Part shown: one piece after another, positions 5,975-23,542 of the stretch
How positions within the stretch are numbered: the stretch's first letter is position 1
Layout: every line of letters begins with the position of its first letter
Virus record (IMG/VR): IMGVR_UViG_643348547_000006
Direction: 5' to 3' (one strand)
Length of the DNA: 23,542 nucleotides
DNA from: a virus
Lineage: Duplodnaviria > Heunggongvirae > Uroviricota > Caudoviricetes
Position numbers and translations under genes: made by a program
The notes under the pieces: model-generated
Told to the model about the DNA's origin: nothing
What the model saw: only the letters and a program-made list of their open reading frames with translations
The model's database searches: none

Positions 5975-7147
5975 TTACGCGCTGACCTGGCTGGCGAAAT
6001 TAACCAGGTACTGATCGGTGATGCGCTGACGCAGCATCAGGTTTTCAAGTGGCGGCACTGGCGTGTAGTCGTAGTCGATGGTGAGTTTTCCGGCTTTCAG
6101 CGTGTCTTTGTCGTTCACCGACTCATCCAGCCAGCAATCACCACCAATGAGATAGCCCTGACTGACCAGGCTGCGCATTTTGGCGCGGATACCTTCGATA
6201 ATGTCGCGGGCCAGCGACGGGTTAAGCGGTTTATCCACCGCCCACATGTGTGCTTCTGCCATCGTGTCCATCAGCACCTGCGCCGTGCGGGTGTAGTTTT
6301 CGAAGGCAAAGAGCGGGTCATCACTCAGGCAGCGGGAACCCCAGAAGCGGAAACCGTCTTTACGCACAAGCGTGGTGACGTCGTTCTGGTTCAGCAGACC
6401 TGCATCGGTTGCCGGGTCCTGCAGATCCCAGAACACATCTGCAGAAATTCCGGTGACACCGTTCACGCCCACGTTGGACAGGCTTTTGTGCCATCCGGTC
6501 TGCTCGTCAATTTTGGCGCGCAGACCAAGCGCACGGGCGGTGGCATATGCCGTTGCTTCGGCATTCAGCACCGTGTCCCAGCCAGTAAAGTCAGGCCAGA
6601 TCAGCATCCCTTCGCGCTGGCTGAAGTTTTCGCGGTAAGTGATCGCCTCCTGCACTGTCTTGCAGCCATACGCTGACAGGTAAGCAAATCCACGCAGGCT
6701 TTGCGCCACGCTCAGCAACTCAGTAGCTACCGCCTTGGTGTCGTGGCCTGGCACGCCGAGAATGCGCGGTTTAACGCCGAGCTGTGACTGGGCAGATAAC
6801 AGGGCTTTCATACCTGTTTTTTTACCTTCAGCAGTCACTGCGCCGATGATATTGGTCGTGGTTTCGTCTTCCGTTTCACCCTGCGGCACACGCACAACAA
6901 TGGTCACGGGTTTTGCCTGGTCAGCGATGGCATCCAGCGAACGGGCCAGAGTACCTGACTCACCCGCTTTACCGCTGGCAGTCAGCACATCAGTGATCAG
7001 CACGGGTTTATTAAGAGGAAACATTTTTGCATCGGCATCATCGCCCGTGCAGACCATACCCACGATGGCGGTGCTCACCGTGGTAATAGATCGGGTACCT
7101 TCGTTGACTTCAACAACGCGCACCCCGTGGTGGTAATCCTGAGCCAT
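5975..7147 (-). CDS. FI: Contractile tail sheath protein gpFI
   Basis: 390-aa ORF; ATG 7145-7147 with AGGAGG 8 nt upstream; first gene of the F-E-T-U-D block. Confidence 0.9.
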
Positions 7148-7242: not shown

Positions 7243-7308
7243 AATAACGGTATTTGTCTGCTTGCAGGGATAATCAACATAATGCTGATTCAGGGGGATT
7301 CATTGATC

Positions 7309-8128
7309 GGCACTGTTGCAAAGTTAGCGATGAGGCAGCCTTTTGTCTTATTCAAAGGCCTTACATTTCAAAAACTCTGCTTACCAGGCGCATTTCGCCC
7401 AGGGGATCACCATAATAAAATGCTGAGGCCTGGCCTTTGCGTAGTGCACGCATCACCTCAATACCTTTGATGGTGGCGTAAGCCGTCTTCATGGATTTAA
7501 ATCCCAGCGTGGCGCCGATTATCCGTTTCAGTTTGCCATGATCGCATTCAATCACGTTGTTCCGGTACTTAATCTGTCGGTGTTCAACGTCAGACGGGCA
7601 CCGGCCTTCGCGTTTGAGCAGAGCAAGCGCGCGACCATAGGCGGGCGCTTTATCCGTGTTGATGAATCGCGGGATCTGCCACTTCTTCACGTTGTTGAGG
7701 ATTTTACCCAGAAACAGGTATGCAGCTTTGCTGTTACGACGGGAGGAGAGATAAAAATCGACAGTGCGGCCCCGGCTGTCGACGGCCCGGTACAGATACG
7801 CCCAGCGGCCATTGACCTTCACGTAGGTTTCATCCATGTGCCACGGGCAAAGATCGGAAGGGTTACGCCAGTACCAGCGCAGCCGTTTTTCCATTTCAGG
7901 CGCATAACGCTGAACCCAGCGGTAAATCGTGGAGTGATCGACATTCACTCCGCGTTCAGCCAGCATCTCCTGCAGCTCACGGTAACTGATGCCGTATTTG
8001 CAGTACCAGCGTACGGCCCACAGAATGATGTCACGCTGAAAATGCCGGCCTTTGAATGGGTTCATGTGCAGCTCCATCAGCAAAAAGGGATGATAAGTTT
8101 ATCACCACCGACTATTTGCAACAGCGCC
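7309..8128 (-). mobile_element. IS26-like (IS6 family) insertion sequence, copy 1, 820 bp, no target-site duplication
   Basis: Terminal 14-bp repeats GGCACTGTTGCAAA (7309-7322) and, on the other strand, GGCGCTGTTGCAAA (8115-8128); encodes the Tnp26-like transposase. Flanking octamers differ (CATTGATC vs AAAAGCGG). Confidence 0.9.
7361..8065 (-). CDS. tnp26: IS26-family DDE transposase
   Basis: 234 aa from MNPFKGRHFQRDIILWAVRWYCKYGISYRELQ..., recalled as Tnp26; ATG at 8063-8065. Translation is identical to the copy-2 transposase. Confidence 0.9.
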   Translation of the reverse strand: MNPFKGRHFQRDIILWAVRWYCKYGISYRELQEMLAERGVNVDHSTIYRWVQRYAPEMEKRLRWYWRNPSDLCPWHMDETYVKVNGRWAYLYRAVDSRGRTVDFYLSSRRNSKAAYLFLGKILNNVKKWQIPRFINTDKAPAYGRALALLKREGRCPSDVEHRQIKYRNNVIECDHGKLKRIIGATLGFKSMKTAYATIKGIEVMRALRKGQASAFYYGDPLGEMRLVSRVFEM

Positions 8129-9277
8129 AAAAGCGGCACCGTTGCATTTCAGCCAGCCTGTTGGCGGAGTGGCTGAAGGCCACGGAACAGGCACCCCAAC
8201 CGGTAATGCAGAGCCTTCTCCCAAACCAAGGTATGTGAGAAGACCAGCTACATCCTTTCCACTCAAATTGGTAAGCGTATTGTCCAGCGGTTGTTTACCT
8301 GCCAGCGCATTAAGCATTGTCGTGGCAAAGTTCGGATCATTCCCCAGTGCCACCGCCAGTTCGTTCAGTGTATCCAGTGCAGCAGGTGCAGAACCCACCA
8401 TTCCTGCAATCGCCGATTTCACAAAAGCCGTAGTGGCAATCTGTGTATTGTTGACCGACTGCGCCGCCGTGGGGGCTGTTGGCGTTCCGGTGAGTGCCGG
8501 ACTCGACAACGGTGCTTTTAGTGCCAGCGCATTGTTAATGGTGGTACTGAAATTCGGATCATTGTTAATGGCTGCGGCTATTTCTTTCAGCGTGTCCAGC
8601 GTGGCTGGCGCACCATTAATAAGGGCCGTCAGTGCCGCCTGTACAAACGCAGTGGTCGCAACCTGCGTGGTATTATTCCCCGCCGCTGGCGTTGGCGCTT
8701 TGGGGGTTCCGGTAAATGTCGGGCTGGCTTTTGGCGCGTACTGTGAATGCGGGTCCGGTGCGGCAAGATGTTTTGCCATCTGATCATCCGCGTACACCTT
8801 CAGCTCCAGTGCCTTGTCATCCACATACTTGCGGGTTGCCAGCACTACAGCAGGGTCGATTTTCAGGGTGATATTGTCCGTGCTGCTGGTAATCAGCACC
8901 ATGCGCACGGTCTGAGTGCGCCCGCTACCTTCAGCCAGTTGCGGCTTATAGCTTTCCGGGCAGTTGCCCACGGCAATCAATGCACCTGACTCATCAAACA
9001 GGCCCACTTCACGTATCCACCAACCGCCCTCGTTTTCAGGGATCACCTGTTCGGCAATAATCTGGCTGCTGTTCTGCGGGTCGATATAAAGCATATTCAG
9101 CGCAGCCCGGCGTTTCTCATTTACCAGTGCCGTCTGCTTTGCGTCCGGCGTTGGCAATACTCCACCGCCATCGCCCACCGCCATATGGGTAATTTTTAGC
9201 GGCACACCGAGCGCGGCGGCGCTGGCAAGTTTCGCCGCGCCAATATCCGTCAGCAGGGTATAAAATTTTGTGCTCAT
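8129..9277 (-). pseudogene. H: Tail fibre protein gpH, 3'-truncated by IS26
   Basis: ORF 8102..9277 has a P2 H-like N-terminus (MSTKF...MAVGDGGG...ESYKPQLAEGSGR...) and reaches ...PVPWPSATPPTGWLKCNGAAF; its last 8 residues (GAVANSRW) and stop are encoded by the IS26 end. About 380 aa remain versus roughly 670 aa in P2 H. Confidence 0.8.
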
Positions 9278-9879
9278 GGATTCACTCTCATTGTGTCAAT
9301 AACATGGACCGCCCCGCCTTCATGCGCGGTGCCACCGGAAATAATCGTTTCGTTGATATACGGATAGATCGTGATTTCTTCGCCAAGATAGCTGGCGGCT
9401 CCCACCCAATGCGGGCCGCTGGTCTGCAGATTGATGGACATGCCGATCATGTGGCGGCTACATGGTTTGGCATCGCTTATCAGTCGCTCAAGTTCCAGAT
9501 AGGTATCTTCAGTGATGCCCTGGTCCTGCACGCCGATATCCAGGCGAAACGTGCCCGGTGTTTCTCCGGTCTGCCACCACTCAATAATGCGGATCAGGAA
9601 TCCGAACGGCTCCACCACCCGCCGCACGGCACTGGTGGTCCCTTTATGCTGATGAATATAAAAAGCATCCTTCACCACCTGGCGCTTGACGCTTTCTGTC
9701 CAGCCCTCGTCCCAGCGATCCACAGAGAACGCCCAGGCGAGATAAGGCAGGAAACTGACCGGACAGGTTGCCGGATTCCACAAATCACGAAGCGGCACCT
9801 GCAGATCAGAAATCCCGCTGCAGGTTTGCGCCAGTCGGCACTCCAGTGGTGTTGAACCCGGTGGCAGCAGACTATTCAT
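9274..9879 (-). CDS. I: Baseplate protein gpI
   Basis: 201-aa ORF; ATG 9877-9879 with GGAGG upstream; overlaps the H start (ATGA); position between J and H matches P2. Confidence 0.8.
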   Translation of the reverse strand: MNSLLPPGSTPLECRLAQTCSGISDLQVPLRDLWNPATCPVSFLPYLAWAFSVDRWDEGWTESVKRQVVKDAFYIHQHKGTTSAVRRVVEPFGFLIRIIEWWQTGETPGTFRLDIGVQDQGITEDTYLELERLISDAKPCSRHMIGMSINLQTSGPHWVGAASYLGEEITIYPYINETIISGGTAHEGGAVHVIDTMRVNP

Positions 9880-10780
9880 CCGTTCCTCCGTTGGTTACGC
9901 TCCACTGCGTACATGATGCCGCCTGTGTTTTGTTCAGGACCACATCCGCCAGAGGAGAAGCCAGCTCCACACGCTGCACCCCCTCAACATGCAGGGCGGC
10001 AAAGATGGCGCTACGGCGAATATCCCGACCAAGACGCGTCTGACTGGCGATGTACTTCTGCAGGCTGGCTTTTGCCGCTGCCATTACCGGCTCTGCTTCC
10101 GGTCCAGGATAGAGAAAAATGGTGGCTTCCACGCGATACGGGATGATTTCTGCGCTGCGAACCGTAAGACGGTCAGCCACCGGGCGGACGTTCTCACTGT
10201 TCAGAGCTTTTTCCACCACGTCCAGCAGGTCTTTTTCTGCAGTTCCATCGCCTTCGCGGCTAAGGACAGTCAGCACCACCTCTGCAGGTGCCGGGCTGGT
10301 TGCACTGGCATCCGCCACCCGACCGTCGGCGCTTCGGGCATGAAATTCATAAGCTGCAGTTGGCCCCGCAACAGAAAGCCCTTCAAAGGCTGCAGGCACA
10401 CGCAGGCGCAACGCTTCATCGCTTTCCATCACAGCTGCAACGGGCGGCACAGCATCATTATCAGCAGGCGTCACCGTCAGGCGTGTCACGTTGTAGTTGG
10501 CAGCGAGCTGGTCAAGATCGCCGCCCATCGCGTAAGCCACCATCACCGCCTGCGCGGCTTCGTTAATGCGCTGGCGCAGAAGCAACTCACGGTAAGCGTT
10601 CTCCTGCAACAATTTAGTGGCGGGTTCAGATTCCAGTTCCAGCGTGCGGATCACTGCTTCCTGCTCATCTTTCGGATGAAGCGCCACAAATTCTGCCTTG
10701 CGTTCGGCAAGCAGCGTCTCAAAGTCCGGCACATCCACAATCTGCGGTGCAGGCAACTGCGAAAGGTCAATCACTGCCAT
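9872..10780 (-). CDS. J: Baseplate protein gpJ
   Basis: Start set at the internal ATG (MAVIDLSQLPAP, 10778-10780) with AGGAG 6 nt upstream; N-terminus resembles P2 J. Confidence 0.85.
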   Translation of the reverse strand: MAVIDLSQLPAPQIVDVPDFETLLAERKAEFVALHPKDEQEAVIRTLELESEPATKLLQENAYRELLLRQRINEAAQAVMVAYAMGGDLDQLAANYNVTRLTVTPADNDAVPPVAAVMESDEALRLRVPAAFEGLSVAGPTAAYEFHARSADGRVADASATSPAPAEVVLTVLSREGDGTAEKDLLDVVEKALNSENVRPVADRLTVRSAEIIPYRVEATIFLYPGPEAEPVMAAAKASLQKYIASQTRLGRDIRRSAIFAALHVEGVQRVELASPLADVVLNKTQAASCTQWSVTNGGTDE

Positions 10781-11126
10781 TCTCTGCTCCTGTTGATACG
10801 GAAAGGGACACAGGCACACCGTTATTCCGCCGCCCGGTCAGCTCCACCACCATTGAACCGTCAAAATTGCTGTTGATGGTGATGGAATCCAGCGTCAACC
10901 GTGGCTCCCAGCGACTCAGCGCCACATACACTGCCGACATGACCTGCAGGCGTAATGCCGGATTTTGTGGCTGATCTATCAGTGCCGACAGCAGGGAACC
11001 ATATTCCCGGCGGGCAATACGGCTACCCTGCGGTGTCAGCAGAATGTCCCGCACCGACTGGCGCAGATGATCAATATCAGTAATGACTTTGCCGCTGGTA
11101 TTGTTCATCCCGCTATAAAGCGTCAT
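10767..11126 (-). CDS. W: Baseplate protein gpW
   Basis: 119-aa ORF between V and J; ATG 11124-11126 overlaps the V stop. Confidence 0.8.
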   Translation of the reverse strand: MTLYSGMNNTSGKVITDIDHLRQSVRDILLTPQGSRIARREYGSLLSALIDQPQNPALRLQVMSAVYVALSRWEPRLTLDSITINSNFDGSMVVELTGRRNNGVPVSLSVSTGAENGSD

Positions 11127-11701
11127 ACCGGGCCTCCGGTTGTATCGCCGCCTTTCAGGACGCCAGTATGCTGATGCGCATCAACCACGATCCCGTTAGA
11201 ACTCATCGCTCCGCCGCCCTGGGTAACGCCACCATTGATCACCACTTCGCTGTTAATGCGCGTGCGGTCAGCCTCCAGTACAAACTCACTGGTTTTCATG
11301 GTGATGTTGTCAGCAGCCTCAATGACCATTGATTTGATGCCCCTGACATACCAGCGCCCGGTGGCGGGTTCGTATTCAAACCAGCCACCGTCAGGATGTT
11401 CTGTCACGCAGGCGTCCGCCGACGTCGACGGTGGTGCGAACTGATTCGAATAGACAGCGGGCAGCGCAAAGGCGGTTTCCAGATTGCCGCCCAGACTCAG
11501 CAGCACCACCTGCTCACCTTCCGATGGTCGCCACCATGTACGGGCATTCCCGGCACGCAGCGTCAGCCAGCTGATCCAGTTGGTTTCAAGCTCGCCCGTT
11601 TTCACCCGGCAAAGCCAGTTTTCCCTGTCCACTTCGGTGACTACCCCTGTGCGGATCAGGTTGGTGATAAGGCGCATGATTTCGGTTAATTGTGCGTTCA
11701 T
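11123..11701 (-). CDS. V: Baseplate spike/hub protein gpV
   Basis: 192-aa ORF; strong resemblance to recalled P2 V (N-terminal IRTG..TE.D, C-terminal HxH...GGxTxGP). Confidence 0.85.
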   Translation of the reverse strand: MNAQLTEIMRLITNLIRTGVVTEVDRENWLCRVKTGELETNWISWLTLRAGNARTWWRPSEGEQVVLLSLGGNLETAFALPAVYSNQFAPPSTSADACVTEHPDGGWFEYEPATGRWYVRGIKSMVIEAADNITMKTSEFVLEADRTRINSEVVINGGVTQGGGAMSSNGIVVDAHQHTGVLKGGDTTGGPV

Positions 11702-11746
11702 AGGGAAAGGTTGCCATCAGGGGAAGAAAGGCGGCAGTGCTGCAAC

Positions 11747-11766
11747 TTGTATCAGTGCTGATACAA
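11747..11766 (-). promoter_or_regulatory. Palindrome TTGTATCAG-TG-CTGATACAA in the S-V intergenic region (candidate Ogr site or hairpin)
   Basis: Perfect 9-bp inverted repeat with 2-nt spacer at 11747-11766; also fits TTGT-N12-ACAA; centred 55 bp upstream of the V ATG. Confidence 0.35.
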
Positions 11767-11769
11767 AGA

Positions 11770-12216
11770 TCACCCCGCCAGCCATTGCAGAATCATGTCG
11801 CGGGTCATTGCCTCAACATCATCATTTACACCCAGAAGGCGACGCTCTGCGTAACGCACCTCCGGTCCCTTACGACTGACGCGATCTCGCAGGCCGTAAT
11901 GGTGAACGCGGGCAATGCGCTGCACCTTGCCTTCAAACTGCACGCTGGCAGAGTCGGCGCTGGCGGAAGTTTTCAGGTATTTTGTGGTGCGCAGCTTTGC
12001 AAACATCTGACGTTTGATACGGCCTTTTTTACTGCGTGCTGTTACCCGTCGCGGTTCATAACTGCTGCCATCTGGATTGCGCTGCATTCTGATATTTTGC
12101 TGCTGTGTCCGGCGTAGTTCCTGCGCCAGCTGGCGCATCATGCGGCTTCTTGCGGCTGGCTCCAGATTCGCCAGCAAGGCACTCAGCCAGTCGTCCACTT
12201 TCTGCAGTTCAGCCAC
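11770..12216 (-). CDS. S: Tail completion protein gpS
   Basis: 148-aa ORF (AELQKVDDWLSALLANLEP...) resembling P2 S; the ORF's first codon is GTG (12214-12216); exact start uncertain. Confidence 0.75.
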   Translation of the reverse strand: MAELQKVDDWLSALLANLEPAARSRMMRQLAQELRRTQQQNIRMQRNPDGSSYEPRRVTARSKKGRIKRQMFAKLRTTKYLKTSASADSASVQFEGKVQRIARVHHYGLRDRVSRKGPEVRYAERRLLGVNDDVEAMTRDMILQWLAG

Positions 12217-12640
12217 GTTTCACCGTCCACATTTCTTCAGGTTCATCAGGTTCCGCTATAGCTTCAACGCTCGACACACTGCCGTCAGTGCTGACCAGCA
12301 CACGCTCCGTCAGTTGCAGGTTGAGGCTGATATCACAGACATCGTTGCGCAGAATATCCACCTCAAAGGTGAATAGCTTTTCCCGTAACGCCGGGTTATT
12401 GATGGCATCGGGCTGGTTATCACGCAGCCACAGCAAAACCGGGGCCATCAGCAGATTCTGGTCGCCGCTGAAATCCTCAATCACCACGTTCAGGGTGTAG
12501 CGGTACTCCCATGACATGGAGCTGGCCCCCGTGGCAACCAGCGAACCGTTATCCACAAACAGATGCAGTTTGTCCGGGTTATTGCGGACATAAGGCACCG
12601 CTTTATTGAGGGCGTGGCGCAGGGATTGTGGTTTGTTCAC
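12209..12640 (-). CDS. R: Tail completion protein gpR
   Basis: ORF 12209..12661 begins with TTG; a GTG at 12638-12640 preceded by AGGAG 8 nt upstream gives an N-terminus (M)NKPQSLRHAL similar to P2 R (MLKPDSLRRAL). Confidence 0.7.
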   Translation of the reverse strand: MNKPQSLRHALNKAVPYVRNNPDKLHLFVDNGSLVATGASSMSWEYRYTLNVVIEDFSGDQNLLMAPVLLWLRDNQPDAINNPALREKLFTFEVDILRNDVCDISLNLQLTERVLVSTDGSVSSVEAIAEPDEPEEMWTVKRG

Positions 12641-12893
12641 TGTTTCGCTCCTGACACGCAATAATCATGTCCACTTTGTCTGCACAGACCGCCCAGGCGG
12701 CCTCCGTTTCATCCAGCAACGCATTCAGATCACCGTTAGTGCGCGGTGCTGCCTGCTCCAGCCGACACGGCGTCACTCGCGGACAACCACTGACGGTAAG
12801 CTGCACCTCCGGTGAGTGCCGGACGTTCCCGCAGCCGGATAATGTCAGCAGGCAAAGGAGTATCAGCCCAGTGGCGTAAATCCTCGTTCTCAC
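12603..12893 (-). CDS. lysC: Outer-membrane spanin lipoprotein (LysC/Rz1-like)
   Basis: 96-aa ORF with a signal peptide and lipobox (LLCLLTLSGC) and a Pro-rich C-terminus; starts inside lysB in another frame and extends into R, as P2 lysC does; GTG start with GAGGA upstream. Confidence 0.7.
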   Translation of the reverse strand: MRTRIYATGLILLCLLTLSGCGNVRHSPEVQLTVSGCPRVTPCRLEQAAPRTNGDLNALLDETEAAWAVCADKVDMIIACQERNSEQTTIPAPRPQ

Positions 12894-13164
12894 GTTTCAG
12901 TTCCTCGATCCGGCGTTGTCGTTGTCTCAGCTGTGCGCTGGTCTGTTCTGCTTCGGCATAGAGCCGCGCCTGCTCCCGGTTATTGGTTTCAGTCAGAATG
13001 GACAGGCTGATAAGCTGGCTGTTGCTCTTTGCCAGTGCCTGGCTTTTGCTCTGCAGCTCGTTTGCCTGCGTGCTGATGGTCTGGCTGGCATCAGCCAGCC
13101 GCCACGTCTGCCAGCCCAGCGCCGCTAGTAATAACGCCAGCACAACCAGCAGCAACCGGTTCAT
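12736..13164 (-). CDS. lysB: Inner-membrane spanin (LysB/Rz-like)
   Basis: 142-aa ORF with an N-terminal transmembrane segment (LLLVVLALLLAALGW) followed by a charged coiled-coil-like region; ATG 13162-13164. Confidence 0.75.
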   Translation of the reverse strand: MNRLLLVVLALLLAALGWQTWRLADASQTISTQANELQSKSQALAKSNSQLISLSILTETNNREQARLYAEAEQTSAQLRQRQRRIEELKRENEDLRHWADTPLPADIIRLRERPALTGGAAYRQWLSASDAVSAGAGSTAH

Positions 13165-13538
13165 GCTGCTACCTGTTGCGCCATCTGATTACGGGTGATC
13201 CAGAAGGCAATAACGGTCAGTAGATAAAAGACCAGGGTAATAGCCCACCCCGTCCATGCGAGACTTACAACAATCAGCAATCGCATCACCCAACTGATAA
13301 ATACGTTTTCTTTTCGGGTAATTGTCTTCAGCAAAGATGCCCTTAACTCCTGCCAGAGCGGGCCATTCTGAATTAACGCAGCCAGTGCTACCGGAATTAC
13401 CGCCCATGTCAGCAAACAGGCTACCCAAACGCCGGACGCTGCCAGTACCGGAAAGATCCCCTGCGGATACACCATTGCTGCGATTAACAGCGCCATCCAT
13501 AACATCAGAAACAGTCCGCTGATTAATTTCTTTTTCAT
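13161..13538 (-). CDS. lysA: LysA-like multi-pass membrane lysis-timing protein
   Basis: ORF 13161..13610 begins with GTG; the ATG at 13536-13538 (MKKKLISGLF...) with GGGAG upstream gives a 125-aa protein with 3-4 hydrophobic segments. Start choice uncertain. Confidence 0.6.
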   Translation of the reverse strand: MKKKLISGLFLMLWMALLIAAMVYPQGIFPVLAASGVWVACLLTWAVIPVALAALIQNGPLWQELRASLLKTITRKENVFISWVMRLLIVVSLAWTGWAITLVFYLLTVIAFWITRNQMAQQVAA

Positions 13539-13539
13539 T

Positions 13540-14052
13540 TCAGTTTGCTCCCTGTAAACACCAGGCCATCTCCCGCGCACGGCGGTTATCCAGCCCCTGA
13601 TTAAACACACCTTTTACATAAACCCAGCGCGGCAACTGTCGGCACGCATCCGCCCAGCGCCGCTGATTGAGCAATTTCACCAGCGTGGAGCTGCAGGCAT
13701 TGCCTGTCCCCACGTTGAAGGCAAACGACACCACCGAGTCATACACCTTTTGTGGCGGCTGTTGCTTCACACATCTTTCCAGCGCCCGCTCCACACGCAG
13801 CACGTTGGAGATAAGCCCTTCTGCTGCCTGTCGTTCCGTAATGGTTTTGCCGGGAATGACGCCCGACGTATTACCAATGCCGTCAGTCCATACACCCGCG
13901 CTGCACTGATAGGGCTGCAGACGACAGCCTTCGTAATCGGCAATCAGTTTCAGTCCCTCCACGGAGGTGTGAAGCTGCTGAAAACCCGGCAGCGTGGCAG
14001 CAATAGCCAGCACGGTCCCGACAAGGCAGCGTTTAACGATTGATGGATTCAT
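13540..14052 (-). CDS. K: SAR-endolysin-type lysozyme (GH24, P1 Lyz-like)
   Basis: 170 aa; N-terminal hydrophobic signal-anchor-release-like segment containing a Cys (KRCLVGTVLAIAATLPG), then EGCRLQPYQCSAGVWTDGIGNT, which closely matches the P1 Lyz active-site region as I recall it; ATG with GGGAGG upstream. Confidence 0.8.
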   Translation of the reverse strand: MNPSIVKRCLVGTVLAIAATLPGFQQLHTSVEGLKLIADYEGCRLQPYQCSAGVWTDGIGNTSGVIPGKTITERQAAEGLISNVLRVERALERCVKQQPPQKVYDSVVSFAFNVGTGNACSSTLVKLLNQRRWADACRQLPRWVYVKGVFNQGLDNRRAREMAWCLQGAN

Positions 14053-14248
14053 AGTCCTCCCGCGAGATCTGCCCGTCGCGCAGAAGCTGGTAGGCTTTGT
14101 GTTTGTAGTACCAGTTGATAGCCAGCATCAGCACACCAATCATCAGGCCGCCCAGCGTTGAGGCATCCTTGATGGACAAATCGCCCAGCCAGACCAGCAC
14201 AACGGCGATGCAGTACGTGATAAAGGCGCTGATTCGCTCAAGCGTCAT
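14033..14248 (-). CDS. Y: Holin (class II / pinholin-like, two transmembrane segments)
   Basis: 71 aa with two hydrophobic segments and a charged C-terminus; sits immediately upstream of the endolysin and overlaps it by 20 nt. Confidence 0.65.
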   Translation of the reverse strand: MTLERISAFITYCIAVVLVWLGDLSIKDASTLGGLMIGVLMLAINWYYKHKAYQLLRDGQISREDYESINR

Positions 14249-14251
14249 AAT

Positions 14252-14455
14252 TCAGTCCCATAGCTGGACGGTCTGCACGGTGGTGGTTGTCGGAATGTCC
14301 GGCAGCTCCACCTGCAGCCCGTGAGGTAAAAAGGGGCCATATTCGGCAAGCCCCGGATTTGCCTTCAGTACCTGCTCCGTGACACCCTGCGTGCGCCCGT
14401 AATGACGCCAGCAAAGCGCGTCCACCGTGTCATACTGATGCGCACGCACTTTCAT
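14252..14455 (-). CDS. X: Tail protein gpX
   Basis: 67-aa ORF, same size and position as P2 X; ATG overlaps the L stop (ATGA). Confidence 0.7.
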   Translation of the reverse strand: MKVRAHQYDTVDALCWRHYGRTQGVTEQVLKANPGLAEYGPFLPHGLQVELPDIPTTTTVQTVQLWD

Positions 14456-14919
14456 CAGATAAGCTCCACTGTGCAGTGCGGCGCGTCCTGTACCCGGCTG
14501 ATGGCCCAGCGGGCGTCACGCCATAAATCACCGCTGGCTTCCGCCAGTTCCTCGCCCCGCTTCACACCGGATGCCGTGGCGTCATAGTCCTGGTAACGTT
14601 CGTTGAGCATGGCGCGTGCCCAGCAGTAAACCGCGTTGAAATAGTGCTGAATGCGCTCACTTTTGCCGTCCAGCTGTTCCGCCGGAACCTCTGCCAGCGA
14701 GGCATACCCCAGCATCTGCTGGCATCTGCGAAACTCATACAGCTCTGCGTTGACCTCCGAAATTGCCGACAGCGCAACCTGCTTTAAACGCGGCTGCGTC
14801 ACCGTACCGTCAGTGCGCATCACACTGCGGAACTCCGACAGATCCACATCAGGCCAGAACGGCGTATTCCTGATGATTTCCGCCTGTTCCGGTGCCTGTT
14901 CTGGCGCAACAAACTTCAT
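14455..14919 (-). CDS. L: Head completion/stabilisation protein gpL
   Basis: ORF 14455..14982 begins with GTG; the ATG at 14917-14919 (MKFVAPEQ...) has AGGAGA 8 nt upstream. Internal region (IRNTPFWPDVD..., ELWRD.RWA) resembles P2 L. Confidence 0.8.
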   Translation of the reverse strand: MKFVAPEQAPEQAEIIRNTPFWPDVDLSEFRSVMRTDGTVTQPRLKQVALSAISEVNAELYEFRRCQQMLGYASLAEVPAEQLDGKSERIQHYFNAVYCWARAMLNERYQDYDATASGVKRGEELAEASGDLWRDARWAISRVQDAPHCTVELI

Positions 14920-15014
14920 GCTGCTTTCTCCTGAGATAGAGGGCGGTGGACGGGGTTTTGATGTGGCAGTGCCTTTCGCCACCCCGTGCCGCCCGTGCGC
15001 GGGGGCACGTTCTG

Positions 15015-15665
15015 TCAGCGGCTGTCATTGCGCAGTCTGCGCTCCAGCTGCTGTTTGTCTTTTTTCACGCCACAGCGGGGATCGAGCTGTAACGCATGGT
15101 TGAGATGATTAAGGGCGGAAGCCGGATTACTTTCACTCAGGACAGCGCCAATCGCTTTATGCAGACGCGCCCGTGACTGGTCCGGCATGTCCAGACCGTC
15201 TGTCAGCTCCAGCGTCTGCAGCAACAGATCGACATCAAAGCCGGTAGTGGCAAGCATTGCGCTCTGTGCCGCGTCTGCCATTTCCTCTGCCAGCACGGTT
15301 TGCACATTGCGGTTACCCAGCGGCATCACCCAGCCATGACGCAGGGCATGACGCCCGATCTCCAGCGCCCCGGCATAATCTCCGGCATCAATGCGCCACA
15401 GCATCACGTACATCAGCACGTCATCCTGTTGAGCGCCTCCGGCAGCCAGAACACCCTCTGCCCAGGCGGCGTATTTCGGCAGCAGCTCCACCTTGATTTC
15501 CGCTTTTTTGACCGTGGACTGAACGCCCTTGAGACGGCGGCGATCTTCCGCCAGTTGCAGCAGCATCAGGTCATAGCCCGACGCGTGGCGAACGCTGCCG
15601 CCCTCACGGGCGGCCTGTTCAGCCTGAACGCGCAGGCGATGCTGCCGTGCGGGACTCAGGCTCAT
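15015..15665 (-). CDS. M: Terminase small (endonuclease) subunit gpM
   Basis: 216 aa; N-terminal and central similarity to recalled P2 M (QDD.LM.VMLWR.D.GD.AGALEI...); ATG 15663-15665. Confidence 0.8.
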   Translation of the reverse strand: MSLSPARQHRLRVQAEQAAREGGSVRHASGYDLMLLQLAEDRRRLKGVQSTVKKAEIKVELLPKYAAWAEGVLAAGGAQQDDVLMYVMLWRIDAGDYAGALEIGRHALRHGWVMPLGNRNVQTVLAEEMADAAQSAMLATTGFDVDLLLQTLELTDGLDMPDQSRARLHKAIGAVLSESNPASALNHLNHALQLDPRCGVKKDKQQLERRLRNDSR

Positions 15666-15668
15666 GAA

Positions 15669-16727
15669 TTACGCTCCGGTTTCTGCTGCGGCGGCGCTAA
15701 AATCGCCAATCTGGATGTTTTCCACCAGTGCAGCGCAGCGGTAGTCCTCAACCACATAGGCTTCGTTAACGGATTCAAAGTTTTCAATCCGGTCACGTTT
15801 CGGGTTGTCGATAACTGAACGGCGGCGGGTGTCTTCCTGCCAGTAAATGGACAGGTTATCCAGACGGGTGATCAGCAGTGCATTCGGCGGGAAGAACGGC
15901 GCACGCACGGCCTGCAGGCCACCCATGCGTTTCTGACTGATGATCATATCGGCAGCCAGTTTTTCACTGTTTTCCTGCTCTTTGTTGACCAGCGGGAAAT
16001 ACTTGTCAGACAGCAGTTCACGACCGCAAATCACCACCAGATCGTCATCGTCCTGGTAGACCACGTCGATAAGCTCATTGACGGCATCCATCACCACAGC
16101 GTCCAGGTTGGCATATTCGCCACCTTTACCGACTTTCACCGCGCCCGGTGTGGTTTCACCGCCCGTGGTGGTGCTGCCCATAACGTGATCCGGTGCATCC
16201 TCACGGATTTTCTGCAGCCAGCCTTTGTTCACATCCTGCAGCAGCGGGTTTTCACTACGGTTGGAGGTTTTCGCACGCTTCACGCCGTTAAAGCCGATCA
16301 TGATGCGGTCCAGTGCCTGACGTTTCACGATGGCGTCACGGATACGCACCTGGAAATCCTGAAACTTCGCCCACAGGTCCAGCTTCGCGTAGGTCAGTAC
16401 CGTGTCAAAGTTGGTCTGCTCGCATTTATATTCCACATCGACCATCAGCGTCGGATCGACAGGTTCACGCTCTTTCGCGGTGGTATCAGTGGTTCCGGCA
16501 ATGGTGCTGCCAACTCCCAACCCCAGCAGCTGACCGGACTGCTCAGTCACTGGCGTGACGTTAATCAGCGTCAGGAAAGCGGCGGACTGCTGGATCTGGT
16601 CTTCCAATGTCTGCTGCACGGACGGCTCTACGGTGAACTTGCTGGACAGTTCTTCAACTGCCACACCGTTCAGACGCGCCAGTTGCTGCAGATAAGCGTT
16701 AAAAGCAAAGCGGGTATTCTTCTTCAT
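15669..16727 (-). CDS. N: Major capsid protein gpN
   Basis: 352-aa ORF between O and M; ATG 16725-16727; size and position match P2 N. Confidence 0.9.
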   Translation of the reverse strand: MKKNTRFAFNAYLQQLARLNGVAVEELSSKFTVEPSVQQTLEDQIQQSAAFLTLINVTPVTEQSGQLLGLGVGSTIAGTTDTTAKEREPVDPTLMVDVEYKCEQTNFDTVLTYAKLDLWAKFQDFQVRIRDAIVKRQALDRIMIGFNGVKRAKTSNRSENPLLQDVNKGWLQKIREDAPDHVMGSTTTGGETTPGAVKVGKGGEYANLDAVVMDAVNELIDVVYQDDDDLVVICGRELLSDKYFPLVNKEQENSEKLAADMIISQKRMGGLQAVRAPFFPPNALLITRLDNLSIYWQEDTRRRSVIDNPKRDRIENFESVNEAYVVEDYRCAALVENIQIGDFSAAAAETGA

Positions 16728-16743
16728 CAGGTTTTGTGCTCCA

Positions 16744-17577
16744 TCAGCAATTGGTCAGAGTGTCAGCGGGGGCGTTACCGCCTGTTGCACGCTGGCGGTA
16801 GTCCTGGCGGCTGTCTTCATGGCTCAGCTTGTCCACCAGTTCGTTAAAGGCGGTCTGCTGTGCCTGCAGGGCAGTCTCCAGCTCAGACAGGCGTTCTTCC
16901 TGCTCAGACAGGGATTTTTCGGTGCGCGCACTCAGGTTCTGCTGCTCAGTGGCGACCAGTTCCACGGCCTTATGCACATCAGAGAACCGGGCGTCATCGG
17001 ACTGCTCTTTTTTGGTGAACAGCGCCGTGACACGGGCAAACAGGGACGGTTTGTCATCCTGGATTTCTTCCAGTTCGATCACCGTTTCCTCTGCAGCGGT
17101 AAAAAGATTGGCGGGATTCTGCTTGCGGTTTGCCAGCGGGTTATGGGCTGCACTGGCGCTGAATGTCAGCATTTCAGTGCCCAGACTGGCAGGGTCATCA
17201 GTGGCAGCCAGGCCGACCAGGTAGGCTTTGCCCGTATCAGCGAACTTCGGGCTAACTTCCATAGATGTGAATAATTTCTGGCCTTTTTTCACCAGTTCCA
17301 CCAGGGACTCCGTTGGCTCAACGTCGGCATACAGCGCCATCTTGCCTGCCAGCGGACCTTCCTTGATTTCTTCAGCAAACAGCGCCGTCACCTTGCCGTA
17401 GCGGTTAAAGGTGCTGTCCGGCAGATAAGACTTGATGTGCTCAAGGTTAATCAGCGCGGTATACACCGCCGGGTTGTAGCTGGCTGCCATCTGTTCCAGC
17501 CATTCACGCTGGATTTCGCGTCCGTCGGTGGTGGCACCTTCCACCCCGATGCGAAAACGCTTTGCTTTCACTGTCAT
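16744..17577 (-). CDS. O: Capsid scaffolding protein gpO
   Basis: 277 aa; close to recalled P2 O (FRIGVEG...DGR.I......YNP.VY...INLEH...YLVGLA.TDDPASLGTE...ATGG..AD.L.NC). Confidence 0.85.
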   Translation of the reverse strand: MTVKAKRFRIGVEGATTDGREIQREWLEQMAASYNPAVYTALINLEHIKSYLPDSTFNRYGKVTALFAEEIKEGPLAGKMALYADVEPTESLVELVKKGQKLFTSMEVSPKFADTGKAYLVGLAATDDPASLGTEMLTFSASAAHNPLANRKQNPANLFTAAEETVIELEEIQDDKPSLFARVTALFTKKEQSDDARFSDVHKAVELVATEQQNLSARTEKSLSEQEERLSELETALQAQQTAFNELVDKLSHEDSRQDYRQRATGGNAPADTLTNC

Positions 17578-17654
17578 GAGCCGTGCTCCGTTAGAAAAAA
17601 CTTACTGGAGCCTTATGGTTGCGGTGATGGGGGCAGTGAAACAATGCGCGGTAT

Positions 17655-17674
17655 TTGTACCGACAACCACACAA
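17655..17674. promoter_or_regulatory. Candidate Ogr-binding dyad (TTGT-N12-ACAA) in the divergent P/O promoter region
   Basis: ttgtaccgacaaccacacaa at 17655-17674, centred about 87 bp upstream of the O ATG and 55 bp upstream of the P ATG. Confidence 0.45.
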
Positions 17675-17719
17675 ACCGCAGGCGGGGAAAGCCTTCATTC
17701 AAGGTTGTAGGTTTGTGCC

Positions 17720-18826
17720 ATGAACACCACACTGACACCCGCAGATCTCGATCCCCGTCGGCAGGCCATGCTGCTGTACTTTCAGGGATACCGCGTAGCC
17801 CGCATTGCTGAAATGCTGGGCGAGAAAGTTGCAACCGTTCACAGCTGGAAAAAACGCGACAAGTGGGGTGACTATGGGCCGCTGGATCAGATGCAGCTCA
17901 CCACCGCCGCACGCTACTGCCAGCTCATCATGAAGGAGCACAAAGAAGGGAAAGATTTCAAAGAGATTGACCTGCTGGCGCGCCAGTCGGAGCGCCACGC
18001 GCGGATCGGCAAGTTTAACAATGGCGGCAACGAAGCCGACTTAAACCCTAACGTCGCCAACCGCAATAAAGGCCCACGCCGTCAGCCGGAAAAGAATGTT
18101 TTCACCGATGAGCAGATTGAGAAGCTGGAAGAAATCTTCCATTCCTCCATGTTCAACTACCAGCGCCACTGGTGGGAAGCCGGAAAAACCAACCGCATCC
18201 GCAACCTGCTGAAGTCACGCCAGATCGGCGCGACCTTTTACTTTGCCCGTGAAGCCCTGATTGACGCCCTGCTTACCGGACGTAACCAGATTTTCCTTTC
18301 CGCCAGCAAGGCACAGGCCCACGTCTTTAAGCAGTACATCATCGACTTCGCCAAAGAAGTGGGGGTGGAGTTGAAAGGCGATCCGATGGTGCTTCCTAAC
18401 GGGGCCACGCTTTACTTCCTCGGCACCAATGCCCGCACGGCCCAGAGTTATCACGGCAACCTGTATCTGGATGAATATTTCTGGATACCGAAATTCCAGG
18501 AGCTGCGCAAAGTGGCTTCCGGTATGGCTATTCACAAAAAATGGCGACAAACCTATTTTTCCACGCCATCCAGCCTGACACACAGTGCTTATCCGTTCTG
18601 GTCCGGTGCGCTGTTCAACCGTGGGCGCAACAAGGCCGACAAGGTGGACATCGACCTGTCCCACAGCAATCTGGCCCCCGGCCTGCTGTGCGCAGACGGG
18701 CAATACCGCCAGATAGTCACCGTGGAAGATGCGGTGCGCGGCGGCTGTAACCTGTTCGACCTTGACCAGTTGCGCATGGAGTACAGCCCGGACGAATACC
18801 AGAACCTGCTGATGTGCGAGTTTGTG
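17720..18826 (+). pseudogene. P: Terminase large (ATPase) subunit gpP, 5' portion, interrupted by IS26
   Basis: ORF 17720..18853 reads about 369 codons of P and then 8 IS-encoded codons (GAVANSRW) before a stop inside the IS26 end. Confidence 0.85.
18819..18826. repeat. 8-bp target-site duplication AGTTTGTG (left copy) of IS26 copy 2
   Basis: Identical octamer immediately flanks both ends of the 820-bp element. Confidence 0.85.
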
Positions 18827-19646
18827 GGCGCTGTTGCAAATAGTCGGTGGTGATAAACTTATCATCCCTTTTTGCTGATGGAGCTGCACATGAACCCATT
18901 CAAAGGCCGGCATTTTCAGCGTGACATCATTCTGTGGGCCGTACGCTGGTACTGCAAATACGGCATCAGTTACCGTGAGCTGCAGGAGATGCTGGCTGAA
19001 CGCGGAGTGAATGTCGATCACTCCACGATTTACCGCTGGGTTCAGCGTTATGCGCCTGAAATGGAAAAACGGCTGCGCTGGTACTGGCGTAACCCTTCCG
19101 ATCTTTGCCCGTGGCACATGGATGAAACCTACGTGAAGGTCAATGGCCGCTGGGCGTATCTGTACCGGGCCGTCGACAGCCGGGGCCGCACTGTCGATTT
19201 TTATCTCTCCTCCCGTCGTAACAGCAAAGCTGCATACCTGTTTCTGGGTAAAATCCTCAACAACGTGAAGAAGTGGCAGATCCCGCGATTCATCAACACG
19301 GATAAAGCGCCCGCCTATGGTCGCGCGCTTGCTCTGCTCAAACGCGAAGGCCGGTGCCCGTCTGACGTTGAACACCGACAGATTAAGTACCGGAACAACG
19401 TGATTGAATGCGATCATGGCAAACTGAAACGGATAATCGGCGCCACGCTGGGATTTAAATCCATGAAGACGGCTTACGCCACCATCAAAGGTATTGAGGT
19501 GATGCGTGCACTACGCAAAGGCCAGGCCTCAGCATTTTATTATGGTGATCCCCTGGGCGAAATGCGCCTGGTAAGCAGAGTTTTTGAAATGTAAGGCCTT
19601 TGAATAAGACAAAAGGCTGCCTCATCGCTAACTTTGCAACAGTGCC
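18827..19646 (+). mobile_element. IS26-like (IS6 family) insertion sequence, copy 2, 820 bp, with 8-bp target-site duplication
   Basis: Ends GGCGCTGTTGCAAA (18827-18840) and TTTGCAACAGTGCC (19633-19646). Transposase and antisense-ORF translations are identical to copy 1 up to the element boundary. Confidence 0.9.
18890..19594 (+). CDS. tnp26: IS26-family DDE transposase
   Basis: 234 aa from ATG 18890-18892; identical translation to copy 1. Confidence 0.9.
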   Translation: MNPFKGRHFQRDIILWAVRWYCKYGISYRELQEMLAERGVNVDHSTIYRWVQRYAPEMEKRLRWYWRNPSDLCPWHMDETYVKVNGRWAYLYRAVDSRGRTVDFYLSSRRNSKAAYLFLGKILNNVKKWQIPRFINTDKAPAYGRALALLKREGRCPSDVEHRQIKYRNNVIECDHGKLKRIIGATLGFKSMKTAYATIKGIEVMRALRKGQASAFYYGDPLGEMRLVSRVFEM

Positions 19647-19654
19647 AGTTTGTG
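19647..19654. repeat. 8-bp target-site duplication AGTTTGTG (right copy) of IS26 copy 2
   Basis: Matches 18819-18826 exactly. Confidence 0.85.
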
Positions 19655-20314
19655 GACGATCTCGCGTCCGTATTTCCGCTCAGCGAGCTGCAGGCGTGCA
19701 TGGTGGACAGCTGGGAAGTCTGGACCGACTTTCATGCACTGGCTCTGCGCCCGTTTGGCTGGCGCGAAGTGTGGATCGGTTATGACCCGGCAAAAGGTAC
19801 GCAAAACGGCGACAGCGCCGGATGCGTGGTGGTGGCACCGCCAGCCGTGCCTGGTGGTAAGTTCCGCATTCTTGAGCGTCACCAGTGGCGCGGGATGGAC
19901 TTCCGCGCCCAGGCTGACGCCATCAAAAAACTGACCGAACAGTACAACGTGACCTATATCGGTATCGACTCAACCGGCGTTGGTCACGGGGTTTATGAGA
20001 ACGTGAAAGCGTTCTTTCCTGCCGTCCGGGAGTTTGTCTACAACCCCAATGTTAAAAACGCCCTGGTACTCAAGGCCTACGACATTATCAGCCACCGCCG
20101 TCTGGAGTTTGACGCCGGGCACACCGACATTGCGCAGTCATTTATGGCAATCCGTCGCGCTACCACTGCCAGTGGCAACCGCCCGACCTATGAAGCCAGC
20201 CGCAGCGAAGAAGCCAGCCATGCCGATCTGGCCTGGGCAACAATGCACGCACTGTTTAACGAACCGCTGCAGGGCGAGTCCGCCAATACCAGCAATATTG
20301 TGGAGATTTTTTGA
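19647..20314 (+). pseudogene. P: Terminase large subunit gpP, 3' portion
   Basis: Removing the IS and one duplication copy restores a continuous frame ...LLMCEFVDDLASVFPLSELQ...; stop TGA at 20312-20314 overlaps the Q ATG. Confidence 0.85.
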
Positions 20315-21373: not shown

Positions 21374-21477
21374 AGAACCTTTATCGCCATTTTAGATAAA
21401 AAGCAAAAAATGGATCAGTAATATGAACCGCCCCGGGAATCCTGGAGACTAAACTTCCTGAGAAAGAGGTAAACAGG

Positions 21478-21804
21478 ATGACTAAAAATACTCGTTTTTC
21501 CCCCGAAGTCCGTCAACGGGCAGTCCGTATGGTTCTGGAAAGTCAGAGCGAATATGACTCACAATGGGCGACAATTTGTTCCATTGCTCCAAAGATTGGC
21601 TGTACGCCGGAGACTCTGCGTGTCTGGGTTCGCCAGCATGAGCGGGATACCGGGGGCGGTGATGGAGGGCTCACCACCGCTGAACGTCAGCGTCTGAAAG
21701 AGCTGGAACGTGAAAATCGTGAACTGCGCCGCAGTAACGATATCCTTCGCCAGGCTTCCGCTTATTTTGCGAAGGCGGAGTTCGACCGCCTCTGGAAAAA
21801 ATGA
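21478..21804 (+). CDS. IS3-family transposase OrfA (helix-turn-helix / leucine-zipper subunit)
   Basis: 108 aa, [23 protein letters not shown]...; recalled as IS629/IS1203 OrfA. Confidence 0.85.
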
Positions 21805-22691
21805 TGCCACTGCTGGATAAGCTGCGTGAGCAGTACGGGGTCGGACCGCTATGCAGCGAACTGCATATTGCCCCGTCAACGTATTACCACTGTCAGCAAC
21901 AGCGACATCATCCGGATAAACGCAGTGCCCGTGCGCAGCGCGATGACTGGCTGAAGAAAGAGATACAGCGCGTATACGATGAAAATCACAAGGTATACGG
22001 TGTGCGTAAAGTCTGGCGTCAGTTGTTACGGGAAGGTATCAGAGTGGCCAGATGCACTGTGGCACGTCTCATGGCGGTTATGGGACTTGCCGGTGTTCTC
22101 CGGGGTAAAAAGGTCCGTACGACCATCAGCCGGAAAGCCGTTGCCGCAGGCGACCGCGTAAACCGTCAGTTCGTGGCAGAACGACCTGACCAGCTGTGGG
22201 TGGCTGATTTTACTTACGTCAGCACATGGCGGGGCTTCGTCTATGTGGCGTTCATCATTGATGTGTTTGCCGGATACATCGTGGGGTGGCGGGTCTCATC
22301 GTCCATGGAAACGACATTCGTGCTGGATGCACTGGAGCAGGCGTTATGGGCCCGTCGACCGTCCGGCACGGTCCATCACAGTGATAAAGGTTCTCAGTAT
22401 GTATCGCTGGCCTACACACAGCGGCTTAAGGAAGCCGGATTACTGGCATCAACAGGAAGTACAGGCGACTCGTATGACAACGCGATGGCGGAGAGCATCA
22501 ATGGTCTTTACAAAGCGGAGGTAATACACCGTAAGAGCTGGAAAAACCGTGCAGAAGTGGAACTGGCCACACTCACGTGGGTGGACTGGTATAACAATCG
22601 ACGATTGCTGGAAAGGCTGGGCCATACTCCTCCGGCAGAAGCAGAAAAAGCTTATTATGCTTCCATCGGAAACGATGATCTGGCAGCCTGA
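21801..22691 (+). CDS. IS3-family transposase OrfB (DDE catalytic domain); OrfAB fusion predicted by -1 frameshift
   Basis: 296-aa ORF in the -1 frame relative to orfA, overlapping at the A-run GGAAAAAATGA; contains DDE-type motifs ([15 protein letters not shown]). Confidence 0.85.
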
Positions 22692-22733
22692 GTTCACAGA
22701 TAAAACACTCTCCAGGAAACCCGGGGCGGTTCA

Positions 22734-23133
22734 GGTGACCAAATACCGAATTACCTTTGTAAGAACGAAGGGGAAGAAAAACAGAAGCATCCCTATCAGT
22801 AAAGAGCTTTACGAAGAGATCATGGCGTTTGATGGGTTCAATTTCTTCACAGACTGCTATTTTCAATTTTTATCCGTGATGGAAAAAACGTCTATCGTGC
22901 TCCCTCGCGGTCAACTGACACACGTTCTGCGCCATACTTTTGCGGCGCACTTCATGATGTCGGGTGGAAACATCCTGGCCTTACAAAAAATTCTCGGACA
23001 CCACGATATAAAAATGACTATGCGTTACGCACATCTGGCACCGGATCATCTGGAAACGGCGCTCCGTTTCAATCCTCTGGCAACATTGCCAAGTGGCGAC
23101 AAAGTGGCGGCAGCGGTTGGCATTACCCCGTAA
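22734..23133 (+). pseudogene. int: Tyrosine integrase, C-terminal catalytic fragment (5'-truncated at the IS629 boundary)
   Basis: Frame open from the IS end; encodes ...RTKGKKNRSIPISKELYEEI...HVLRHTFAAHFMMSGGNILALQKILGHHDIKMTMRYAHLAPDH, i.e. the Lys, His-x-x-Arg, His and Tyr motifs of tyrosine recombinases; the N-terminal domain and first catalytic Arg are absent. Confidence 0.75.
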
Positions 23134-23194: not shown

Positions 23195-23542
23195 CCCGTT
23201 TACATAAATGGCAGTAACATTTATGCCTTCCGCGCCAATTGTTCGTATCGTCGCCACTTCGAGAGCTGGTTTCATGCTGACGGTGCCGCTCCGGGAACTA
23301 TCCATGAGATGGAGTCTTATCACGGAATGTTGGCCTGTGTGGTCGCAGGAGCAGGCATTGCGCTTATTCCACGCTCTATGCTGGAAAGTATGCCGGGGCA
23401 TCACCAGGTTGAAGCGTGGCCGTTAGCTGAGCAATGGCGTTGGTTAACAACCTGGCTGGTCTGGCGTCGCGGTGCGAAAACGCGTCCGCTTGAGGCATTT
23501 ATTCAACTACTGGATGTGTCTGACTCGGCAAAACAGAGTTAG
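23195..23542 (+). CDS. LysR-type transcriptional regulator, C-terminal portion only (host flank)
   Basis: Frame opens at 23195 after a TAA, with no upstream coding capacity; ...[28 protein letters not shown]... resembles the C-terminal effector-domain region of LysR-family regulators; stop TAG at the window end. Confidence 0.5.

Follow-up and report, generated by a model that had tools for sequence, protein, structure and literature searches.

Results

Two identical IS26-type copies in inverted orientation

The window analysed here is the whole stretch of 23,542 nucleotides (nt) in IMG/VR record IMGVR_UViG_643348547_000006, a caudoviricete sequence. It contains two copies of an insertion sequence (IS) of the IS26 type, in inverted orientation, on either side of a block of P2-like phage genes. 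A repeat search of the whole window returned one outstanding inverted repeat, namely this pair. Its arms, at 7309-8128 and 18827-19646, are 820 nt each and 100% complementary, with a spacer of 10,698 nt; string comparison confirmed that copy 1 equals copy 2 at all 820 positions. A perfect repeat of this length cannot be a chance product. The pair consists of the following features, given in base pairs (bp), nt or amino acids (aa):

7309-8128, minus strand: IS26 isoform copy 1, 820 bp, with the canonical right repeat at 7309-7322 and the variant left repeat GGCGCTGTTGCAAA at 8115-8128; without target-site duplication
7361-8065, minus strand: tnp26 of copy 1, a 705-nt gene for a 234-aa transposase with R117L and G184 (Pfam match scored on the identical copy 2 protein)
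8129-18826: bracketed block of 10,698 bp in native P2 order, with H', I, J, W, V, S, R, the lysis genes, X, L, M, N and O on the minus strand and P' on the plus strand
18827-19646, plus strand: IS26 isoform copy 2, 820 bp, with the variant left repeat at 18827-18840 and the canonical right repeat at 19633-19646
18890-19594, plus strand: tnp26 of copy 2, a 705-nt gene with a 234-aa product

In both copies, the terminal repeat beside the transposase start is GGCGCTGTTGCAAA (8115-8128 reverse-complemented; 18827-18840), while the far repeat is GGCACTGTTGCAAA (7309-7322; 19633-19646 reverse-complemented). A first-pass annotation, made from the letters of the sequence, had proposed identical, inverted, IS26-type copies at these positions, with a transposase-proximal repeat one base off the distal one; both proposals hold. 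The two transposase genes are directed outward. On its outside the pair therefore ends in canonical right repeats, while both left repeats, with the change A4G, face inward. The transposase, scored as the copy 2 protein, matches PF13610 (DDE_Tnp_IS240) over residues 75-212 of 234 (E=1.5e-47). A scan of copy 2 for promoters and terminators found none.

The element is an isoform of IS26

Aligned to the majority form of IS26, as found in pCTXM15_020097, the window element is identical at 817 of 820 nt and 233 of 234 aa. There are exactly three nucleotide changes, namely A>G at IS position 4, in the left terminal repeat (A4G); C>T at position 43, between the left repeat and the tnp26 start codon (C43T); and G>T at position 413, which results in R117L, the only amino acid substitution in Tnp26. 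The first-pass annotation had named about three differences (a repeat base, a Leu for Arg in AAYLFLGK, and a transposase-proximal base), and these are the three.

Under the ISfinder rule quoted in PMC6807381, an isoform of IS26 must exceed 95% identity to it in nucleotides and/or 98% similarity in the transposase, and 817/820 nt and 233/234 aa fall within these bounds. The element also has the length of 820 bp and the 14-bp terminal repeats of IS26, the right one exact and the left one at 13 of 14 positions (A4G), as well as a single DDE transposase of the IS240/IS26 type (PF13610) and, at copy 2, the 8-bp duplication that accompanies simple insertion. In canonical IS26 both terminal repeats are GGCACTGTTGCAAA (PMC8477213). 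The conserved repeat bases, i.e., GG at 1-2, TGT at 6-8 and G10 (the set given in PMC8477213), are unaltered in the variant left repeat. The window element is an isoform of IS26, in the IS6/IS26 family. No mention of the variant repeat sequence was found in the searchable literature.

The first-pass annotation had also suggested a variant like IS15-delta, and this identification fails. IS15-delta-1 (IS15DI) is the same as IS26-v1, three nucleotides and one amino acid away from IS26 (PMC6807381), and two of those three nucleotide differences yield G184N (PMC9412624, PMC12540391). Compared by this published definition, the window element is not that variant, since its residue 184 is G and its only substitution is R117L.

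Copy 2 is a simple insertion in the terminase gene

The chromosome of Escherichia coli O7:K1 CE10 (NC_017646, 1760874-1789306) matches every piece of the window other than IS26 at 99.95-100%. Its prophage is ~99.98% identical to the window, and both IS26 sites are empty in it. Positions labeled L030 below refer to this CE10 locus. The surroundings of copy 2 are:

17720-18826, plus strand: 5' part of the terminase large-subunit gene P, codons 1-369
18819-18826: left target-site duplication of copy 2, AGTTTGTG
19647-19654: right target-site duplication of copy 2, AGTTTGTG
19655-20314, plus strand: 3' part of the terminase gene P

Copy 2 interrupts the terminase gene behind codon 369 and, with its 8-bp duplication, is a textbook case of simple insertion by IS26. 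The empty site in CE10 has AGTTTGTG once (L030 22459-22466), and removal in silico of copy 2 together with one AGTTTGTG restores a terminase open reading frame (ORF) of 588 aa, as in CE10. The boundaries of the element are made exact by these flanks, and the copies are identical; that is, neither of the faults against which the first-pass annotation had cautioned, differing copies or misplaced boundaries, is seen. By the accepted mechanism, an IS26 simple insertion with an 8-bp duplication is a resolved copy-in cointegrate (PMC7986276). The interrupted reading frame P' continues into the left end of the IS and stops at 18853, with the tail GAVANSRW. H', the truncated tail-fibre gene beside copy 1, enters the IS26 left end in the same frame (8102-8128, as against 18827-18853 for P'), and both products end in the same eight residues.

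Copy 1 adjoins a deletion at the tail-fibre switch

Copy 1 has no target-site duplication; the 8-mer to its left, CATTGATC, bears no relation to the one to its right, AAAAGCGG. Relative to CE10, copy 1 stands in place of 2,379 bp (L030 9309-11687). Neither the missing duplication nor this deletion figures in the first-pass annotation. Lost with the segment are the invertase gene, apart from its last 19 nt, and the final 402 nt of H. Also gone are the 26-bp crossover site on the left, the alternative C-terminus of the tail fibre and the two genes for tail-fibre assembly (chaperones). The remnants on either side are:

7290-7308, minus strand: last 19 nt of the DNA-invertase (serine invertase) gene, CE10_RS09020 (L030 9290-9856); the window match ends at L030 9308
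8129-9277, minus strand: truncated tail-fibre gene H', 383 of 516 codons, reading into the IS end to a stop at 8102, with the tail GAVANSRW
8216-8241: surviving 26-bp invertase crossover site TTCTCCCAAACCAAGGTATGTGAGAA, the right site, whose partner and invertase are deleted

An IS26 copy without a duplication beside a deletion is expected from intramolecular replicative transposition in cis, and equally from recombination between two direct copies (PMC7986276, PMC4471558); the adjacent deletion accounts for the missing duplication (PMC7986276). The deletion at copy 1 would thus have arisen by one of these two routes, and the data fit both alike.

Three observations on other genomes concern tail-fibre regions of this kind. 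In CE10, the 26-bp inverted sites at L030 9912-9937 and 11775-11800 enclose an invertible tail-fibre segment of the Gin/Cin type. In strain AR_0013, a 3.6-kb segment is inverted (L031 8189-11794), with one joint exactly at the center of the crossover site (window-equivalent 8228-8234) and the other at 6189-6195, inside the sheath gene; an aberrant reaction of the invertase at a pseudo-site seems to have split the sheath and H genes. Finally, in several complete but unrelated E. coli genomes, IS26 lies directly against P2-like tail-fibre genes at other positions, in some cases joined to distant chromosomal genes such as rhaS, which suggests recurrent IS26 insertion or rearrangement at P2-like prophages.

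Copy 1 preceded copy 2

An exact look-up of the H'-IS and P'-IS fusion ORFs gave matches only in short-read contigs. Among the matches listed, L007 (four samples) and L009 (one sample) span the 10.7-kb block in full, continue on each side for 30 nt into the variant left-repeat end, and agree with the window at 100% identity. The two inner junctions, with the G at repeat position 4, are thus reproduced independently, and the double-IS configuration is a clonal marker, found in several runs. Contig L008 (SRR13992328) has the H'-IS junction together with an uninterrupted 588-aa terminase and the portal gene. All contigs with the P'-IS junction carry the H'-IS junction too, and no contig with copy 2 only was seen among the short-read contigs that match the fusion ORFs. 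Because the state with only copy 1 exists in L008 and the converse state is not seen among these contigs, their sequences place copy 1 before copy 2. L008 also has a separate deletion of ~3.0 kb (window-equivalent 10225-13244), by which the reading frames of LysA and baseplate J are fused; the overlap at the joint is 12 bp.

The bracketed block is not inverted

The block between the copies is in native P2 order, collinear with CE10, AR_0013 and phage KP12. In an inverted isomer, the duplication of copy 2 would be divided between both copies; here it is intact. The block is therefore not inverted in the window sequence, as the first-pass annotation had read from the gene order.

These findings bear on two other ways in which an inverted pair might form. 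The first is a one-step origin, in which a single IS26 transposes replicatively within its own molecule, in trans, so that a second IS copy is made and the DNA in between is inverted. This is a common origin of inverted IS26 pairs in plasmids (PMC4471558), and it would leave copy 1 without a direct duplication, as is the case here. However, it also leaves reverse-complementary 8-mers on different copies, whereas copy 2 is flanked by a direct duplication of its own, and the reverse complement of the inner flank of copy 1, CCGCTTTT, does not match AGTTTGTG. That is, the flanks (CATTGATC/AAAAGCGG and AGTTTGTG/AGTTTGTG) are not those of the in-trans product. Moreover, this route inverts the block, which is collinear with CE10 and KP12 and which has the same orientation in L008, the relative with copy 1 only. 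We consider a one-step origin extremely unlikely.

The second possibility is that the 12.3-kb unit, IS26-phage block-IS26, was transposed into the site as a composite transposon. Its outer ends are both canonical right repeats, and the IS copies do bracket a discrete block. Yet the sequences inside and outside the pair are contiguous parts of one prophage, collinear with CE10; the outer flanks, CATTGATC and AGTTTGTG, are not a duplication; and the 12.3-kb unit is absent from all collections searched. IS26 pseudo-compound transposons and translocatable units, furthermore, need direct copies (PMC7986276, PMC6807381), and the copies here are inverted. The chance that the unit arrived as a whole seems to us close to nil.

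It might also be argued that the assembler put the IS copies in the wrong place or the block in the wrong orientation. Short-read assemblies break at every IS26, e.g., L007, L008 and L009 all end 30 nt into it, and hence they cannot by themselves orient the block. Against an artefact, both inner junctions recur independently in several samples, and the direct duplication of copy 2 and the clean deletion junctions of copy 1 fit only the given orientation. We regard a misassembly as very unlikely.

We also searched for an inverted isomer. Queries with the whole window and with both junctions against 5,426 complete E. coli genomes turned up neither junction, in whatever arrangement; coverage of the junction queries reached at most 67% and 55%, where at least 72% is expected of the isomer. 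The exact junction 39-mer was absent from the viral, GTDB-representative and metagenome contigs. No inverted isomer was found in these data, which cannot detect one, the matching short-read contigs being silent on block orientation. RecA-dependent inversion between inverted repeats of 820 bp is a reasonable expectation. The pair would then be a passive substrate for such inversion, rather than a dedicated switch.

The isoform is found on F-type plasmids

In PLSDB, more than 5,000 plasmids match the element at 99% or above, most of them at 99.6% (817/820); all 820 positions are matched by only 14 plasmids. Likewise, 14 of 20,395 complete-genome E. coli records have the exact isoform; all are plasmids, of 54-123 kb, with a single copy each. 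They include pCE10A (NC_017647) and a plasmid of strain N32, and are of the F type found in extraintestinal pathogenic E. coli (ExPEC). No chromosomal copy identical at all 820 positions was found in the 5,426 complete E. coli genomes, and none of the 185,579 GTDB species-representative genomes has the 58-mer of the variant left end.

Two related copies were noted. Plasmid pYUXYEH3783-NDM (NZ_CP110998, 66721-67540) has an IS26 with C43T only, A4 and R117 being canonical; this copy is a possible intermediate between canonical IS26 and the window isoform. The chromosome of AR_0013 (3864595-3873414) has the same isoform with one mismatch and the protein WP_001067838.1, preceded by mer genes and followed by the pCE10A context (DsbA, disulfide oxidoreductase, NqrC, FTR1). 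This arrangement indicates what is probably an integrated segment of a pCE10A-like plasmid in this close relative, ~150 kb from the prophage.

The prophage and its host

The window is best read as the remnant of a P2-like prophage in the chromosome of an E. coli strain that is very closely related to O7:K1 CE10. In CE10, sad and yneK/ydeA flank the disrupted LysR-family gene that houses the prophage. Strain N32 is as close to the window as CE10, and AR_0013 and OZ546943 are slightly more rearranged relatives. An origin from Klebsiella was considered, as the best matches in the phage database are Klebsiella P2-like phages at 96-97%, and was dropped in view of the ~99.98-100% identity to CE10. 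Beyond the features listed above, the window contains:

1-219: ogr
after ogr: late genes D to FI
H to O on the minus strand, then P and Q on the plus strand
21424-22733: IS3-family element
22732-23133: last 400 nt of int
23204-23542: attachment junction with the LysR fragment

The gene order, ogr-D-U-T-E-FII-FI ... H-I-J-W-V-S-R-lysis-X-L-M-N-O / P-Q, is that of a P2-like (Peduoviridae-type) phage. These gene calls rest on the collinear annotation of CE10 and KP12 and on the Pfam families of the called genes, which agree. The element is incomplete; its early region and most of int are missing. The early region is already reduced in CE10, and the window lacks a further 4.1 kb beside the IS3-family element. 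With the terminase split, the tail fibre truncated, the invertase gone, the early region lost and the integrase truncated, the prophage is already dead.

The IS3-family element is 1,310 bp long, with 25-nt terminal repeats, orfA at 21478-21804 and orfB at 21801-22691. The only match in an Rfam scan was an ALIL frameshift pseudoknot within it (21759-21875, 120 bits). The matching element in strain 13TMH22 is labeled IS1203 family in RefSeq. To the right of this element, ~4.08 kb of CE10 is missing, i.e., the CII remnant, the CI repressor, ISEc53, a ClbS/DfsB gene and the 5' two-thirds of int. In AR_0013 and GCA_052771165, a deletion from the same end of the element is 73 bp longer (window 22734-22806 is absent), and deletions adjoining this element seem to have arisen more than once. 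The gpR-like tail gene has an 81-bp tandem duplication in CE10 (L030 15878-16039; 170 aa, as against 143 aa) that is lacking in the window (12319-12399) and in AR_0013.

Discussion

We consider it highly probable that a P2-like remnant was struck twice by a rare IS26 isoform, first at copy 1 and later at copy 2, by simple insertion. In the lineage of CE10, the isoform would normally reside as a single copy on an F-type plasmid of the pCE10A type. Because the closest relatives carry the identical isoform only on this F plasmid, the simplest account is that a plasmid copy seeded the chromosome. Copy 1 would have entered the invertase/tail-fibre region first, and its flanking duplication would then have been lost with the adjacent 2,379 bp, by in-cis transposition or recombination of direct copies. 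Copy 2 would have followed through a copy-in cointegrate and RecA-dependent resolution, leaving a simple insertion in the opposite orientation.

The donor of copy 2 may have been a plasmid or, as a variant of this account, copy 1 itself, copied from the sister chromosome with subsequent resolution between direct copies. The latter would account for both insertions within one 23-kb region, and, as follows from the model in PMC7986276, it produces exactly a simple insertion flanked by a direct duplication, whichever way the IS is oriented. The identity of the copies at 820 positions agrees with it; however, the plasmid copy in the closest relatives is equally identical, so the sequence cannot discriminate between the two donors. 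We give the sister chromosome an appreciable, if somewhat less than even, chance.

IS26 is known to form copy-in cointegrates and 8-bp duplications, and to lose duplications with deletion or inversion after intramolecular transposition (PMC7986276, PMC4471558). The products seen here appear compatible with movement through cointegrates, either copy-in or targeted conservative.

Several points weigh against this history of two strikes. For the source strain the data are those of the window, and the total number of IS26 copies in the strain and its possession of a pCE10A-like plasmid lie beyond them. The order of the insertions rests on one short-read contig, L008. Two hits within ~23 kb of a ~5.2-Mb chromosome have a likelihood of ~0.5% if insertions are random and few; their proximity suggests local hopping or many copies. 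Lastly, cointegrates no longer form when repeat bases 3-5 all carry transversions (PMC8477213); full activity of the A4G isoform is accordingly not self-evident, and its movement could have been helped in trans by another IS26. At least one clean insertion was made, which suggests that the A4G repeat and R117L may not abolish activity, i.e., that the isoform is transposition-competent.

As a whole, the locus shows ordinary insertion-sequence damage, the standard and already known behavior of IS26 in a decaying prophage, and not a new kind of element. No new mechanism is implied, and there is little import beyond bookkeeping. What it adds is the presence, in the chromosome of an E. coli lineage of the neonatal-meningitis type, of a rare IS26 isoform (A4G, R117L) that is borne on plasmids, and a further example of IS26 trimming and disabling a prophage, with the terminase split and the tail-fibre host-range switch deleted. 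For assembly and typing of genomes, the inverted 820-bp pair is a break point for short-read assembly, at which a 10.7-kb inversion polymorphism could appear; were such inversion to occur, its consequences would be slight in a prophage that is already dead.

A more speculative proposal is that the isoform with A4G and R117L is still mobile unaided, which would be natural evidence that repeat position 4 tolerates a transition, and that the 12.3-kb unit, whose weakened left repeats both face inward, can be mobilized whole by its canonical outer repeats. We think this improbable. If true, the unit could bring the P2 tail, lysis and capsid gene block to a plasmid.

Comparison with known systems

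Canonical IS26 (e.g., in pCTXM15_020097, NZ_CP043351) shares with the window isoform the 820 bp, the 14-bp repeats, the 234-aa PF13610 transposase and the 8-bp duplication. It differs in having two equal repeats, GGCACTGTTGCAAA, whereas in the window the left repeat is GGCGCTGTTGCAAA and the repeats are thus unequal, in addition to C43T and R117L. IS26-v1/IS15-delta-1 is likewise an IS26 isoform, three nucleotides and one amino acid off, and a variant of enhanced activity; it has G184N where the window isoform has G184 together with L117. The copy in pCE10A is identical to the window isoform at 820 of 820 positions, with the protein WP_001067838.1 in common, and the copy in pUTI89 (NC_007941) at 819 of 820, with one further change, R206G. 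In these plasmids the isoform is a single copy beside repA and the DsbA/FTR1 genes; in the window, in contrast, it is chromosomal and present twice.

The plasmids pKPN-068, pKPC-727 and pKpQIL-234 of He et al. 2015 (PMC4471558) likewise have inverted IS26 pairs that bracket kilobases of DNA, copies without duplications, and deletions at IS26 ends. In those plasmids, however, the segment is inverted and the flanking 8-mer at one copy is the reverse complement of that at the other, whereas in the window copy 2 has a direct duplication and there is no inversion. The setting differs as well, the clinical plasmids of that study standing against a chromosomal prophage remnant without resistance genes.

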